Shown one piece after another: positions 1 to 7,562 of a stretch of 64,000 bases of DNA. Every line of letters begins with the position of its first letter. Within the stretch, counting starts at the first letter, position 1. Under the pieces are notes generated by a model. That model was not told where the DNA came from. It made no database searches and was given only the letters and a program-made list of their open reading frames with translations. This DNA is from an uncultured Enterobacteriaceae bacterium. Its GTDB lineage: Bacteria > Desulfobacterota > Binatia > Bin18. A program made the position numbers and the translations under genes. The stretch is from the NCBI GenBank assembly GCA_964495015.1, contig CAZBUD010000016.1:3491-67490 (forward strand). The letters are read 5' to 3'.

Positions 1-1115
1 TATCAGATTGCAGCCACTCAACTGCCTCAATATAGCGCACGGCCGTCCGCGCGCGGCCGATTTCGGCCATGGCCCAGGTGTTGATCTCAACATCGTCTTG
101 ACTGATTTGTTTGCCCGTCTGTTTGGACAAGGTATTGAGATGCGAGGCGATCGCGCTCGTCAAAATAGCCCAGACGTGCCGTCGCAGTTCCTGTTCAGCA
201 TCGAGCGCGGAGGGATACGCTTCTTCAATCGTGTGTCCGAGTGCACCGAGAAGTTGAACCGTTTCTTGGACTGCGGCGACACAATTCGGATGCAGTGGCA
301 CGGCCTTGCCTGGAAAGTGGCCAAGAAAGCCTATCCGCAGTCGGCCTGGATCAGCGCCGACTTCTTCCAAAAACGGTCGGGCCGAGGGGGGAGCAAAATA
401 CGGATCGCCAGGCATGGGTCCGGCGATCACATCCAGGATGGCGGCCGTATCGCGCACGGAGCGCGTTACCACGTGTTCATTGACTAAGCCCTGCCAGATC
501 TCGCCATACTCGGGTCCAAGCGATGCGCGTGCGCGTGTAGACTTGAGTCCAACCAAGCCGCACTCGCTAGCGGGAATACGAGTTGAGCCACCGCCGTCGT
601 TAGCATGCGCCGCCGGAACCATGCCGGATGCAACTGCGGCTCCTGCGCCGCCGCTTGATCCCCCAGTAGAATGATTTATGTTCCAGGGATTCCGAGTTGG
701 GCCATAGGCTTCCGGCTCAGTCGTGGGCATGCTGGCGAACTCAGGTGTGTTTGTTTTGCCCAAGAAAATAAAACCCGCCACGCGTAGCTTGGCGGCCATA
801 TAGGTGTCTTCTTTCGCCGTCCAGCTGAGGTCTTTGAGAAAACGTGTGCCCTGATGATACGGGTCACCGGCTGAGTGACAACCAAAATCCTTGAGGAGAA
901 ACGGGACGCCCTTGAATGGCCCGTCCGGTACGTCAGTGGACTTTGCTTGCATACGCGCTTTTTCAAACAGCGGAGTAATAACTGCGTTGAGCTGTGGGTT
1001 GGTTTTCTCTACCCTGGCAATGGCGGCATCGACCAGTTCGAGCGGAGTCGTTTCGCCTTTGTGTACAAGATCGGCCTGGGCAATCGCATCGAGACGGGCG
1101 AGTTCATCGGCCATA
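1..1115 (-). CDS. Amidase (amidase-signature family), partial; the C-terminus lies beyond the window start
   Basis: Reverse-strand reading from ATG (complement of 1113-1115) gives [76 protein letters not shown]. It continues through a [12 protein letters not shown] amidase signature and a [10 protein letters not shown] serine motif. An SD-like GAGGAT sits 8 nt upstream. The frame is open to position 1. Confidence 0.8.
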
Positions 1116-1186: not shown

Positions 1187-1402
1187 TTACCCTTTGACCC
1201 TCAGATCCTGTAACGCTGCCCATTTCTGGTATTCAAATATCCAAATGACCAAACACGGAATCGCGATGATCCATCCCCTTCCCAATAGCGCTGCACTGCC
1301 ACGCCAAACCCTTGGATGAGCAAAAACAACCCCGATCACCTCCAGCCCACCATACTTCTGAGACTCTGAGGCTGTGTCCCCCTGCGGATAACGCCTCGCC
1401 AT
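1187..1402 (-). CDS. Hypothetical small membrane protein (2 predicted TM helices) upstream of the amidase
   Basis: ORF MARRYPQGDTASESQKYGGLEVIGVVFAHPRVWRGSAALLGRGWIIAIPCLVIWIFEYQKWAALQDLRVKG. Hydrophobic stretches, same strand as the amidase and 70 bp upstream of it. No clear SD, so weak. Confidence 0.25.
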   Translation of the reverse strand: MARRYPQGDTASESQKYGGLEVIGVVFAHPRVWRGSAALLGRGWIIAIPCLVIWIFEYQKWAALQDLRVKG

Positions 1403-1842
1403 TGACGGACACGTCATGACCGAGCCATCGGAGCGACGTGGCAACCAACTAGGCCAAGAACTCTGCCAACGGCTGGAGCACATAGACCTGAACCACGGGT
1501 CAGCGCAAGCCGACAAACAGGCCAACCAAGGCCAGCAGCGCCCCGCCAAGAAAGTGGAGGAGTTGGGAGCGAAAACCCTGGTTCTACCCTACGTCTGCGT
1601 GGGTGGAAGGGATTCCTCCTGCCGGCGCTGCAGTGTGAGTCGTCGGTTCCATCCGTAGCATTCAGCCTTTGCCCTCAATTTTCTGCCTTTCCGACTCTAT
1701 GCCTTTCATCAATACACGGTCAAGGTAAGCAGACAATTCCAATGGCCCTTTGACTGCGTGAGAAAATGTATTGGCATAAGGTCTCCGCCTAGCTTTCTGT
1801 CCTCCTGCCTGTTATGCGAAAACGAAGCGAAGGAGGCCTAGC

Positions 1843-2266: not shown

Positions 2267-3568
2267 ATGCCGCAATCAGAACAACTCGCACAACAACTAG
2301 AGCAACCTTCATACGGCTGGGTCATCGTCGGGGCAGGTCTCGTGATTAGCCTGTGCATGTACGGAGTCATCGAGTCCTTTGCCATTATGTTTAAACCCCT
2401 TGCCGAGCAGTTCGAATGGGACCGAGGGACTGTTTCGGTTGCGTCGATGATTAGCTGGATCAGCTTCGGCCTCTCAAGCCTGGTGTGTGGTCGGCTGAGT
2501 GATCGTTTTGGTTCAAAGTGGATAATCATAGGCGGCGCTCTTTTTTTTGTGACAGGAACGTTTCTGATGAGTCAGATCCAGTCATTGTGGCAGCTGTATC
2601 TGTATTTTGGCGTTATCCTAGCCATTGGACGGTCTGCGACTGGGGTGCCGATGGTCGCCCTAGTCACAAAATGGTTTGTGAAACGACAGGGCCTCGCACT
2701 GGCGCTTGCCCAATCACAGAACGTGGGCTCGGCCGTCTTTGCTCCGTTGGTTGTTTTCCTCCTTGCCCGCAACGATTGGCGTTGGTCGTATATCTGGCTT
2801 GGGGTAGTCACCTTGATCGTCCTTCCTTTGTCCCTGCTCATGCGGGATAAGCCTGTAGCACCGGTTTCCGCTCGGGGGGTGGACTCGGCTCTCAAAGGTT
2901 CTGATCAGACGGGGAGTGATCCAGTCCAAACTTCTGCATATAGGGCATCTGGCATGTCCCTGAGTGAGGCCATGCGGACACGAGCGTTTTGGACGCTCAA
3001 CTTCATGGTCTTGGGCTGTTGTATGTGTCACTCGTGCATTTTACTGCATGGGTTCAACCATATGACTGACGTGGGCATGCTGGAGTCGGTTGCGGCTCGG
3101 GTGGTGATGCTGATGGCTGTGTTTGGCATGATCGGTAAAATTGTTAACGGTCTATTAGCCGATCGTATCGGCGCGAAACGAGCGATTGCCCTGTTTCTTG
3201 GTTTACAGGCGGTGATGATTCCCTTTTTTATAGAAGCCCGGCAGGCACCCTCTTTCTACTCTTGGGCCGTCCTGTTTGGGCTAGGGTTTGGTGGGCCGAT
3301 GCCTGTCTACGCTATGCTCTTTCGAGAGTATTTTGGCACACGTGCGATTGGGACAATCTTGGGCGTCTTTTTTATGGTGGCGTCTATAGGTATGGGATCG
3401 GGGGGCATGATGGGTGGTGTATTGTACAATCTATTTGGCGATTATAGCGTGCCTTTTCTTACCAGTTCGACTACCGGTATGATCTCCGCCATTCTCGCTC
3501 TCACTTTACCTTCTCCGAAACGAGAGGCCCGAGTGCAAGCGCCACAGATGGCTTTGCAGACAAGCTGA
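2267..3568 (+). CDS. MFS transporter (oxalate/formate antiporter-like family)
   Basis: 433 aa, about 12 hydrophobic segments, with a soluble loop near residue 200. Motif GRLSDRFGSK after TM2 is the MFS signature. Confidence 0.8.
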   Translation: MPQSEQLAQQLEQPSYGWVIVGAGLVISLCMYGVIESFAIMFKPLAEQFEWDRGTVSVASMISWISFGLSSLVCGRLSDRFGSKWIIIGGALFFVTGTFLMSQIQSLWQLYLYFGVILAIGRSATGVPMVALVTKWFVKRQGLALALAQSQNVGSAVFAPLVVFLLARNDWRWSYIWLGVVTLIVLPLSLLMRDKPVAPVSARGVDSALKGSDQTGSDPVQTSAYRASGMSLSEAMRTRAFWTLNFMVLGCCMCHSCILLHGFNHMTDVGMLESVAARVVMLMAVFGMIGKIVNGLLADRIGAKRAIALFLGLQAVMIPFFIEARQAPSFYSWAVLFGLGFGGPMPVYAMLFREYFGTRAIGTILGVFFMVASIGMGSGGMMGGVLYNLFGDYSVPFLTSSTTGMISAILALTLPSPKREARVQAPQMALQTS

Positions 3569-3626
3569 CCAAGCTGAGAATACGGGGACAAAAGTTCCTC
3601 TCCTGCCTGGCCTGTTCCTGCCCTGA

Positions 3627-4565
3627 TTACGAGATGAGGTGTGCGGCGGTCTCGTCGCGATGTTTCTTGAGATAGGGCATGAACGGTGTCCCGCCCGTAC
3701 CGCGATCGGTCGGGTTGTCAGCGCGACACTGGTTCTGTTGATGGATATAGCGCCCCGCGTACTCCAGGTGGGTGGAACGGAAGAGTTCAATCTGGTGTAC
3801 ACAGGCGTCTCACGCGCTGCGCAGCCCAGAAGACCGTTGACACGGCGCCAGAACATACTCACGAATACAAGGGCCTTGTTCGATCGTCGCAATATAAACA
3901 CGGTGATGGAGGGGCATTTGGGCGCGCATCTCTCGCGGGTAGGGACGCAGCCGATCGTCTCGGTGCCCGATGCTGAGTGCAGCATCAAGACAAGGAATAA
4001 GAGAACGCTGGGCTCCGGTTTCACCTCGAAACTGGTGCGGGTGGGCTTTATAGGGCGTTACGCCTTGATACGCAACGCCGCGCGGGAGAGCAGGCTGGTC
4101 CTTCCGGCCGTGGATATAAGGTCGTACCCGGTCGTAATAGATAGACGGGTTGCACTGTTCAGGCATACGGAGCACGGTTGTGTACATATCTTGCACAACC
4201 GTAGCGATGAGGCCGAATTGATGTTCGAGTTCGTCCGGGCGGTTCTCACTCACAGCTCTTTGCGCTGAACCGATTGCTCTGAGCACCGAAGCAGCTTTCG
4301 CTTCGATATCGACGTGGATGAGAATAAACCATTCTTCGTCCAAGCTGGCCAAGAAATTGTGTAGCAGAACGATGTTGCCTAACGCGATTGGCCCGTTGGG
4401 CTCCAGCCGGCGGCAGTTGTAGAGTGCATACGAGGCGTAGGACAGAACCGGTGGACGATCGAGCTGGTGTGCTACGGCCCTAAACGAAACTTGACCTGTG
4501 CGGTAACAAAGCAGTATGAGGAGATGACTAGGGGGAGGTTTCCACGGCGCCGTTAGCAGCGCCAA
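3627..4565 (-). pseudogene. Indoleamine 2,3-dioxygenase (IDO)-family heme dioxygenase homolog with an in-frame TGA (3810-3812) and a short N-terminus
   Basis: The reverse frame encodes PPVLSYASYALYNC ... FILIHVDIEAKAASVLRAIG ... YYDRVRPYIHGRKDQPALPRGVAYQGVTPY ... FRGETGAQRSLIPCLDAAL ... MRAQMPLHHRVYIATIEQGPCIREYVL. These align with the IDO blocks [76 protein letters not shown] and [27 protein letters not shown]. After ...GLRSA comes an in-frame TGA. The same frame then continues as DACVHQIELFRSTHLEYAGRYI (IDO: [22 protein letters not shown]) to a TAA at 3627-3629. The start is a TTG at 4565, directly preceded by a TAA. Confidence 0.6.
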
Positions 4566-4620
4566 ATGGTGGAGAGCTTACACATTAAGCTCATCAAGCA
4601 AGCCAGGAAGGAGGCAGACT

Positions 4621-5805
4621 ATGCAATTTTTCAACTTCCATCTCATGCCCTGGCCACACGTACCAGAGGATTTTGGCGATGCTGAAAAATATCCCTCAGC
4701 TTGGGTCACGTTCTCCAATGAGCACTATGATCCCGAAAAAGGGCAGGATCTGTATAATCGCTATCTGGATGAGCTGGAGTATGCAGAAACGTTAGGTTTC
4801 GATGGCGTATGCGTGAACGAGCATCATCAAAATACGTATGGCACCATGCCGTCGCCCAATATTATTGCCGCCTTGCTTGCGCGCAGAACCAGTCGGGTCA
4901 AGATCGCCATGGTCGGCAACGGGCTGCCGTTGCGCGAGCATCCGATACGGGTGGCAGAGGAGATTGCGATGCTCGACGTCGTCACTGGCGGGCGCATTAT
5001 CTCCGGTTTTGTGCGTGGTATTGGGTGCGAGTATTACTCTATGGGGGTCAATCCTACCCACTCTCTTGCGCGTTTTCGGGAGGCGCATGATTTGATTATT
5101 CGCGCTTGGACCGAGACCGGGCCGTTTAACTTTGACGGTGAACACTACCAGGTTCGCTATGTCAACCTGTGGCCACGTCCGTTTCAACAACCGCATCCTC
5201 CCATCTGGATCCCCGGTTTTGGCAGTAAAGATACAATGAGTTGGTGCGCTGATCCGGCTCGCAAGTACCCCTATTTAGCCGTGTACATGTCGGACGCACT
5301 CGTCAAAACGTATTTCGATCAATATCGTGCGGAGGCCGAGAAATGTGGATATACAGCTTCTCCGTACCAACTGGGTCATTTGCTCCCCATCTATGTGGCT
5401 GAAACCGATGAGCGTGCTCGTGAAGAAGCGGCAGACCACGTTCTGTGGCTTTATCACCGGGGGTTGCGGATTCCCTTAAACATGCTCTTCCCGCCGGGGT
5501 ATGTTACGCAGGAGTCCATGAAACATGTTTTGGGGATGGCTGATGATCTCGACTATGCCAAGATGTCTTTCGATGACCTGAATGATCGCGGCTATTGTGT
5601 CGTGGGCGGTGTGGAGACCGTTAAGCAACGGCTTGCCGCTTCTATCAAAGAATTAGGCTACGGCATTTTACTGTCCCTACTCCAGATTGGTGACATGCCG
5701 CACTACCGGACCGTCAAAAATATGGAGCTGTTCGCCACTGAGGTCATGCCGTATTTGAGAAAAGAGTTTCAGGGCATGCAGGAAAAGTGGGCTCAGGCCG
5801 CGTAG
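4621..5805 (+). CDS. LLM-class (luciferase-like) flavin-dependent oxidoreductase
   Basis: 394 aa. RBS AGGAAGGAGG upstream. TIM-barrel LLM hallmarks are present (LGFDGVCVNEHH, PIWIPGFG, C-terminal helical bundle). Confidence 0.8.
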   Translation: MQFFNFHLMPWPHVPEDFGDAEKYPSAWVTFSNEHYDPEKGQDLYNRYLDELEYAETLGFDGVCVNEHHQNTYGTMPSPNIIAALLARRTSRVKIAMVGNGLPLREHPIRVAEEIAMLDVVTGGRIISGFVRGIGCEYYSMGVNPTHSLARFREAHDLIIRAWTETGPFNFDGEHYQVRYVNLWPRPFQQPHPPIWIPGFGSKDTMSWCADPARKYPYLAVYMSDALVKTYFDQYRAEAEKCGYTASPYQLGHLLPIYVAETDERAREEAADHVLWLYHRGLRIPLNMLFPPGYVTQESMKHVLGMADDLDYAKMSFDDLNDRGYCVVGGVETVKQRLAASIKELGYGILLSLLQIGDMPHYRTVKNMELFATEVMPYLRKEFQGMQEKWAQAA

Positions 5806-5845: not shown

Positions 5846-6634
5846 CTACCTATCACTTGCGAGTTGCTGCAGGACCTCCAGAACAGCCCGATGAATGTGA
5901 CTGTTTGACGCAAGCGTTTGCTCACCGTGGAGATCGAAACGAGCGCCAGAAAAATCACTCGTACGGCCTCCGGCTTCTTCGACCAGGAGTGAGCCGGCTG
6001 CAACATCCCACGGGTGCAGCCGCCACTCCCAGAAGCCATCCGCCCGGCCACAGGCCACATAGCACAAGTCGAGCGCAGCAGAACCGCTCCGCCTGACACC
6101 GTGGGTGCGCAGCATAAAGGCTTCGTAGTAACGAAGATAAAATGCGCTCCGCGCGCGGCGATCATACGGGAAACCTGTCAGCAGCAGACTCTGATCAAGT
6201 TGTGCTGCGGAAGAGACATGAATCGAATTTCCGTTGAGATACGCGCCTCCGTTACGACTGGCGCAGAAGGTCTCGTTCCGAAGCGGGTCGTGGACCACCC
6301 CCACAATTATTTTTGACTCATAGGCGAGGGCGATAGAAACGGCAAAGTGTGGATAGGTGTGGGCAAAATTTGTGGTTCCGTCCAATGGATCGATATACCA
6401 ACAATACGGGCTGTCGGGGCCGGACCTGGCCGATTCCTCTGCGATGAACTTATGCGCTGGAAAACGTGAACGCAGCATATCGGTAATCAGACGATCAGCC
6501 GCTTTATCCACGTTGGTGACCAGATCGACCATGTCCGTTTTTATTTCGACTTGTTTGGTTTTGAGCCAGTTTTCCTTGAGAAGAAGACCTGCTTGCAGCG
6601 CCGCGTCTTGGGCAGCTGTTATGAACGCTCGCAT
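5846..6634 (-). CDS. suhB: Inositol monophosphatase family protein (SuhB-like)
   Basis: Carries DFVTNVDKAADRLI, WYIDPLDGTTNF and WDVAAGSLLVEEAGG motifs. I moved the start to the internal ATG (MRAFITAAQDAALQAG), because the longer ORF would overlap ispE. Confidence 0.8.
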   Translation of the reverse strand: MRAFITAAQDAALQAGLLLKENWLKTKQVEIKTDMVDLVTNVDKAADRLITDMLRSRFPAHKFIAEESARSGPDSPYCWYIDPLDGTTNFAHTYPHFAVSIALAYESKIIVGVVHDPLRNETFCASRNGGAYLNGNSIHVSSAAQLDQSLLLTGFPYDRRARSAFYLRYYEAFMLRTHGVRRSGSAALDLCYVACGRADGFWEWRLHPWDVAAGSLLVEEAGGRTSDFSGARFDLHGEQTLASNSHIHRAVLEVLQQLASDR

Positions 6635-6695
6635 AGATGTATTGTGGCAAGCGCGTTTGGCGCCTGCAATAGGACGATATAACGAAAGGATATCC

Positions 6696-7562
6696 GTGCG
6701 TATCTTTGCCCCAGCAAAAGTCAATCTTTTTCTACGTATTGTTGGCCAACGGTCCGATGGCTATCACCTACTGGATTCTCTCATGGCTCCGGTGCATTTA
6801 TATGACGCAATTGCGATTCAGGCCGAGAGGCGAGAGCAAAACAAGTTAAGAATCACACTGACCTGTGACAAGCTAGACCTACCGACTGATCAATCCAATC
6901 TCGCCTATCGAGCCGCTCTACTCATATGTAGAGAAACTGAAACCACTGCGACTATTACGATTGATCTGCAAAAAAATATTCCGGCTGGTGCAGGCTTAGG
7001 CGGCGGGAGTAGCGATGCCGCCGCTGTGCTCAAGGCCCTGAATTGTTTGCTCTCTTTGGGGCTGAATGTCTCCCAACTGTGCCAGTTGGCGGCGCAAATT
7101 GGGGCAGACGTTCCCTTTTTCATCCCTTGTAGGTTAGCCCGGGTGAGAGGAATTGGTGAAATCCTGACTCCTCTTCCGCCTCTTCCTCGGCACTGGCTGG
7201 TGATTGTAGTTCCGCCTTTTACTGTTTCTACACCATGGGCCTATCGACGCTTTGATGAGCTTTCTCCGGACGTGACATGCAGCCCAGCCGATTCGACACT
7301 GCAAATCACAGCTCAGCAATGGCCGGACATCGGTGTTTTTGTCAACGATCTTGAGCAGGCCGTTCTGCCGGAACACCCGCTTATCGCACAGAGCAAGAGT
7401 AGGCTTCTTGAACTCGGTGCTGAGATGGCCCTGATGTCTGGCAGTGGTTCTGCCGTATTCGGTGTCTTTACAGAGCAGCTACAGGCGCAGCAGGCTGCTG
7501 CGACTTTCACCGACTCCGAACAGGCATTTGTTGTGACAGTAGTAGAGCAGGCCTTGGAATAG
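6696..7562 (+). CDS. ispE: 4-diphosphocytidyl-2-C-methyl-D-erythritol kinase
   Basis: RIFAPAKVNLFLRIVGQRSDGYHLL and PAGAGLGGGSSDAAAVLKALN are GHMP-kinase/IspE signatures. I chose the GTG at 6696 because AAAGGA sits 6 nt upstream. The upstream part of the long ORF overlaps suhB. Confidence 0.8.
   Translation: MRIFAPAKVNLFLRIVGQRSDGYHLLDSLMAPVHLYDAIAIQAERREQNKLRITLTCDKLDLPTDQSNLAYRAALLICRETETTATITIDLQKNIPAGAGLGGGSSDAAAVLKALNCLLSLGLNVSQLCQLAAQIGADVPFFIPCRLARVRGIGEILTPLPPLPRHWLVIVVPPFTVSTPWAYRRFDELSPDVTCSPADSTLQITAQQWPDIGVFVNDLEQAVLPEHPLIAQSKSRLLELGAEMALMSGSGSAVFGVFTEQLQAQQAAATFTDSEQAFVVTVVEQALE

Follow-up and report, generated by a model that had tools for sequence, protein, structure and literature searches.

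The window, by which we mean the whole stretch of 64,000 nucleotides that was analysed, is ordinary chromosome that carries genes for ThrRS, the alpha and beta subunits of PheRS, GroEL, Prs, L25 and IspE. On its minus strand, a reading frame related to indoleamine-2,3-dioxygenase (IDO) extends from position 4565 to position 3627. The translation of this frame passes through PYIHGRKDQPALPRGVAYQGV, FRGETGAQRSLIPCLD, MPLHHR and REYVL to LRSA, where it meets a TGA, and then resumes with DACVHQIELFRSTHLEYAGRYI and ends in HLIS and a TAA. The open reading frame (ORF) from its TTG (4565-4563) to the TGA (3810-3812) comprises 251 codons, and a further 60 codons separate the TGA from the TAA at 3627-3629. 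The TTG is the first possible start, with an upstream TAA (4580-4578) five codons away. The features at the locus are as follows.

3630 to 4478, minus strand: remnant of an IDO coding sequence, 283 codons corresponding to codons 116-398 of the 398-residue protein P0001 encoded on the related contig L001 (blastn, tblastn and Pfam)
3810 to 3812, minus strand: premature stop TGA, at the Tyr338 codon of the orthologue
3627 to 3629, minus strand: terminal TAA, the stop with which the IDO gene originally ended, also present in L001
4479 to 4481, minus strand: deletion junction, the same junction being present in contigs L002, L003 and L004
4482 to 4620, minus strand: retained part of the former intergenic region between the divergent luciferase-like monooxygenase (LLM) and IDO genes, including IDO 5′ leader; collinear with L001 2942-3086, which is intergenic there
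3639 to 4268, plus strand: antisense ORF of 209 aa, inside the IDO remnant, with no Pfam family on record

The 312-residue translation through the TGA was compared with the Pfam IDO family (PF01231), affording a match with an E-value of 3e-63 and a score of 214.5 bits against a gathering score of 26. The match is a single stretch across the TGA, in which residues 28-307 lie on profile positions 102-410 of 412, and the first ∼100 profile positions, the N-terminal quarter, are absent from the window copy. The homology of this frame to IDO is far beyond chance, and its N-terminal quarter is truly missing. NCBIfam holds no model matching IDO. The best match to the translation is P0001 (398 aa, 85% identity), and a tblastn search of P0001 against the window returned the same identity over 287 aa. 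An earlier note on this DNA, made from the letters alone, had pointed to IDO heme-pocket blocks in the reverse-strand frame, to an in-frame TGA after which the frame continues as IDO, to the lack of about 120 N-terminal residues and to a TTG start bounded by an upstream TAA; each of these readings is borne out by the profile match and by the coordinates given above.

The same note considered dioxygenases of this family uncommon in bacteria, which overstates the case. A search of a metagenome and genome protein set returned at least 7,999 IDO homologues at E ≤ 1e-5, all but one of the 8,000 candidates scored. Among the best matches listed, nearly all are 385-400 aa long and many are labelled indoleamine 2,3-dioxygenase; the homologues cover 92% of the query, leaving its first ∼8% unaligned and adding ∼110 N-terminal residues of their own. 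Peptide patterns derived from P0001 alone located 198 stretches that encode IDO relatives in GTDB species-representative genomes, and the 80 of these that were retained carry labels from many phyla, including Armatimonadota/Fimbriimonadales, Acidobacteriota, Bdellovibrionales, Gammaproteobacteria, Bacteroidia, Chloroflexi and Nitrospirota. The nearest named homologues (∼65% identity) are labelled Binatia, Thermodesulfobacteriota and Deltaproteobacteria. Published work likewise records bacterial IDOs (PMC4191572, which cites as its reference 18 Yuasa, Ushigoe and Ball, 2011, Gene 485:22-31). The normal bacterial IDO is a full-length protein, and the family is not rare in bacteria.

An intact counterpart of the gene is found at the syntenic site of a close relative. 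The 10-kb contig L001 encodes P0001, an intact IDO, and is ∼90% identical to the window at the nucleotide level. L001 and the window share the gene order inositol monophosphatase, LLM monooxygenase, IDO, MFS transporter, RidA-family protein, exosortase and amidase. Two blastn blocks flank the 5′ end of IDO, the first pairing L001 2-3086 with window 7543-4482 (91% identity) and the second L001 3471-6273 with window 4478-1679 (89% identity). A second intact 398-aa IDO lies between the same LLM and MFS genes on a 7.09-Mb contig (L089), and its product is one of five further 398-aa members of the 90%-identity cluster of P0001.

Base-level alignment at the gap between the two blocks, together with the blastn coordinates, reveals that 384 nt of L001 (3087-3470) correspond to three bases in the window (4479-4481), a net loss of 381 nt in the window lineage. 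The segment lost relative to L001 comprises 39 nt of 5′ leader with a GGAGGA Shine-Dalgarno sequence, the ATG and codons 1-115. Because the deleted segment maps at 4479-4481, the first 29 codons of the TTG ORF (4565-4479) are former leader and intergenic DNA (4482-4565) followed by the three junction bases; they have no IDO homology, and genuine IDO sequence begins at 4478 with codon 116. The TTG is a mechanical ORF boundary only, and the 251-codon ORF that it opens appears to be an accident of the deletion. No displaced N-terminal fragment of IDO was found beyond chance in any frame of the whole 64-kb window (tblastn, word size 2). The copy in the window has neither its own start codon and ribosome-binding site nor an uninterrupted frame, and it departs from the full-length architecture of a functional IDO.

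The second lesion is the TGA itself. Comparison of codon 338 shows TAT in L001 and in a further relative, L006, and TAC in another, L005; two substitutions are therefore needed to arrive at the TGA of the window. A Tyr occupies this position in 101 of the 101 full-length homologues compared. The FRSTHLEY block, matched in the alignment by RSYH of human IDO, contains a conserved His encoded 14 codons downstream of the TGA, and the 251-aa open frame therefore ends before the heme ligand. In the published structure of human IDO1 this proximal ligand is His346. The His codon of the RSxH motif is present in the window, beyond the TGA, and a product translated to the TGA would lack the residue.

The remnant has also departed from its family at sites elsewhere in the frame. 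In the alignment, 144 columns reach a conservation of at least 90% across the 101 full-length homologues. At 15 of these the window is the only sequence to deviate, or at 13 without two positions derived from the junction, compared with none at which P0001 alone deviates. Examples include W240R (the invariant Trp of HGWK), S273R in GAQSS, L296P, Y302Q, G160S and D225N. Branch dN/dS values were estimated by assigning unique substitutions to terminal branches among four sequences, affording about 0.58 for IDO in the window, 0.51 in L005 and 0.93 in L006, against 0.15 in the intact L001. For the flanking LLM and MFS genes the values are 0.07-0.13 in all lineages, except for MFS in the relative L081 (0.22). 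The loss of constraint is therefore confined to IDO and to the lesion-bearing lineages. Two observations are counterpoints: the window value of 0.58 is below 1, a figure that also takes in the time before inactivation, and the 283 codons of the remnant are still free of frameshifts.

With a probability that we put at roughly 95%, the minus-strand locus at window 3627-4565 is the unitary pseudogene of a bacterial IDO that was once full length. The ancestral gene, which close relatives retain intact, encoded a 398-aa two-domain heme dioxygenase and was situated between a divergent LLM gene and a convergent MFS transporter gene. The 381-nt net deletion took away its ribosome-binding site, start codon and first 115 codons; the codon for the invariant Tyr338 became TGA, which stands before the conserved His aligned with RSYH of human IDO; and thirteen otherwise conserved residues were replaced in the window lineage. 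Judged from its sequence, the locus would make no functional IDO. The remnant may still be transcribed, much of the former leader being retained.

The earlier note had left a choice between a decaying gene and a short bacterial form that depends on stop-codon readthrough. The latter would be a functional IDO whose translation starts at the TTG (4565) and continues past the UGA at 3810-3812 by readthrough or by insertion of selenocysteine. It would fit the open frame, with its IDO homology, to either side of the TGA; a hairpin of -23 kcal/mol can also be drawn downstream of the UGA. The hairpin, however, is not a significant SECIS-like element (fold z = -1.67; 18 of 200 shuffles fold as well), no Rfam match was obtained in 3500-4700 even at E ≤ 10, and the 64-kb window contains no tRNA-Sec, only tRNA-Gln and tRNA-Val; neither a SECIS-type hairpin nor Sec machinery was found in the window. 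The residue at the homologous position in the 101 orthologues is never Cys or Sec. Such a protein would moreover have to be made after deletion of the Shine-Dalgarno sequence and ATG, from an ORF whose first 29 "codons" are former non-coding DNA, and with thirteen conserved residues replaced, while the near-identical strain represented by L003 carries two more stops. No short architecture occurs among the homologues listed (∼385-400 aa). Orthologues of full length, with a sense codon for Tyr in place of the TGA, refute the short readthrough form, which we regard as very improbable; the decaying gene is the alternative that agrees with the deletion, the TGA, the thirteen replacements and the dN/dS values. 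There is likewise only a very slight chance that the remnant might be expressed from the kept leader, through near-cognate TTG initiation and UGA readthrough, as an IDO-like heme protein that consists of the large domain only and has taken on a new role.

Related lineages at 85-93% nucleotide identity carry different lesions in the same IDO gene. L005 (JGI 3300003702) has a 1-nt deletion in codon 10 and a 10-nt deletion in codons 113-116, both frameshifting, and a 6-nt insertion. In L006 (ENA ERZ27247695) codon 2 is a stop, one nucleotide is deleted at nt 147 and the original stop codon is lost. L081 (GTDB representative CAZXFE010000007.1) has several small frameshifting indels and has lost roughly the 3′ third of the gene, and L087 and L088, identical in two samples, have two 1-nt insertions. 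The window, L005, L006, L081 and L087/L088 have no lesion in common, and L001 and L089 are intact. Because four other lineages carry different, unshared disabling lesions, IDO appears to have decayed repeatedly in this clade, and the simplest reading is that the gene was inactivated repeatedly and independently after it became dispensable in parts of the clade. Selection on the oxidation of tryptophan to formylkynurenine would accordingly appear to have been relaxed more than once. Some of the relatives' lesions (those of L087/L088 and of the single-contig L005 and L006) could include assembly indel errors; the lesions of L087 and L088 agree across two samples.

In L006 (378-1541) the IDO stop TAA has become TAT, and the called ORF gains 49 codons that overlap the convergent MFS gene at its 3′ end; its product, P0002 (387 aa), is a gene-caller artefact of a pseudogene, because the true start is disrupted too. 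In L089 (4269-5586) the MFS gene beside the intact IDO is called as fragments of 64 and 154 aa instead of 433 aa, which reflects either gene decay at the locus that differs between lineages or a long-read assembly indel error.

A further explanation is that the DNA is kept for a reason unrelated to IDO, either because it serves the divergent LLM gene as spacer or regulatory DNA or because it holds an antisense or otherwise novel ORF, the one at 3639-4268 on the plus strand being an example. The remnant still spans 0.85 kb, and in L002 (2019-2648) and L003 (1951-2580) gene callers annotated the 209-aa antisense ORF in place of the pseudogene. This ORF, however, has no family in Pfam, and all of it falls within DNA homologous to IDO, in which long ORFs on the opposite strand are a common occurrence; the call is very likely spurious. 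A promoter scan of 3400-4800 found no sigma-70-like site, a pattern that may not suit the host's phylum, and thus no promoter-like site that would speak for a regulatory role. Deletions in the related lineages fall in different places, at the 5′ end of the gene in the window and at the 3′ end in L081, and therefore no segment is consistently protected. Retention on such grounds is highly unlikely.

The unitary pseudogene is also reproduced in independent data. The 381-nt deletion is found in three other assemblies. L002 (SRR5007147) is 100% identical to the window over 3500-4700 and L003 (SRR5007141) 99.7% identical over the same interval, and both carry the deletion and the TGA; L004 (HARO18-2) covers the deletion junction and is identical there. 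The possibility that the real gene is intact and that the TGA, the 5′ truncation or both are contig errors draws on the metagenomic origin of the contig, single-base errors and chimeric joins being known to occur in such assemblies. Against this, the same deletion recurs in all three assemblies and the same TGA in two, the TGA differs from TAT and TAC at two bases and not one, and it is accompanied by the thirteen further replacements at conserved sites. An artefact is extremely unlikely. Over 4,712 nt, L003 differs from the window at only 4 positions, all inside the IDO remnant; these cluster within 16 nt (window 4137-4152; L003 2449-2464), read C>A, C>G, C>G and T>G on the minus strand, and create two stop codons. 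The cluster could represent one multi-nucleotide mutation, a recombination patch or a local assembly error.

SRR5007147 and SRR5007141 belong to PRJNA352798, a Mediterranean water-column metagenome series, and the HARO18 contigs presumably come from the same group. A sponge-symbiont context, suspected from sample names, was rejected on the basis of this project. The host of the pseudogene is an uncultured marine bacterium seen in Mediterranean water-column metagenomes. One protein of the 90% cluster of the LLM monooxygenase is labelled "Desulfurellaceae bacterium".

A reassigned genetic code, with TGA read as sense and the ORF uninterrupted, has only the open frame after the TGA in its favour and next to no chance of being correct. 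Of the 36 other long ORFs in the window, 9 end in TGA, one of them the MFS gene beside the remnant (433 aa, as is its L001 orthologue); the GC content is 53%; and under such a code the missing ribosome-binding site, start codon and N-terminus would stay missing. TGA is an ordinary stop in the genome of the window, and no in-frame TGA at a conserved Trp or Gly position was seen in its ThrRS, PheRS and GroEL ORFs.

The surroundings of the IDO remnant contain other features of interest. Two genes away lies a second pseudogene, of an exosortase (EpsH, PF09721), at window 1202-1661 on the minus strand. The intact exosortase in L001 has 524 aa; the window retains codons 1-102, with three in-frame stops, and a short C-terminal piece in another frame, and lacks L001 6703-7783 (1,081 nt), with the junction near 1328. 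The exosortase of L081 has a different internal deletion (about L001 6493-7387). The amidase gene (1-1114, minus strand) is intact to the window edge, covering 371 of 453 residues at 92% amino acid identity. The inositol-monophosphatase ORF (5846-6724, minus strand) is listed with a TTG start and 292 aa; its L001 orthologue of 262 aa starts at an internal Met (MQVFITAA in L001, MRAFITAA in the window), and the 30-codon extension is probably untranslated. A conserved operon of IDO with the LLM, MFS, RidA and amidase genes was considered and rejected after comparison with 79 distant IDO loci: homologues of the LLM, MFS, RidA and inositol-monophosphatase genes were next to IDO at none of the 79, and a weak amidase match was found at 3.

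The locus should accordingly be labelled an IDO pseudogene and not a 251-aa protein, a readthrough or selenoprotein candidate, or a 209-aa antisense ORF. It is an ordinary decayed copy of a known and widespread bacterial enzyme family, and it introduces no new mechanism. The recurrent, independent decay in sister lineages constitutes a small natural experiment, which suggests that IDO is dispensable in an uncultured marine clade, and the parallel loss is relevant to the distribution of the kynurenine pathway among bacteria and to its disappearance from some of them. The loss of tryptophan-to-kynurenine catabolism in at least five related marine lineages might be adaptive rather than a matter of drift.

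By way of comparison, the window copy retains clear likeness to other bacterial IDOs, with 85% amino acid identity to P0001, 55-67% identity to many proteins labelled IDO from metagenome-assembled genomes, and recognisable conserved blocks (HVDIEAK, RVRPYIHG-K, FRGETGAQ, FRSTHLEYA and GTGGTPFMPYLK). It differs from them in having no codons 1-115, ribosome-binding site or start, in the nonsense codon at an invariant Tyr and in 13 replacements at conserved sites. With reference to the human enzymes, for which solved structures such as 2d0t, 6e40 and 9uz1 are available, P0001 residues 18-396 align with IDO1 17-402 (E about 1e-55), including the RSxH motif, and P0001 aligns with IDO2 at E = 2e-60; this end-to-end alignment with both human proteins therefore identifies the bacterial orthologue as full length. 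In contrast to both, little of the fold's N-terminal part would be left in the window remnant, whose open frame stops before the heme-ligand histidine. A further parallel is with unitary bacterial pseudogenes, a general outcome of gene decay once selection is relaxed. Like them, the locus has an intact syntenic orthologue, several lesions, an elevated dN/dS, additional nonsense variants in the population and sister lineages with independent lesions of their own. Nothing about it is unusual in this company, except that decay has recurred in at least five related lineages at one locus.
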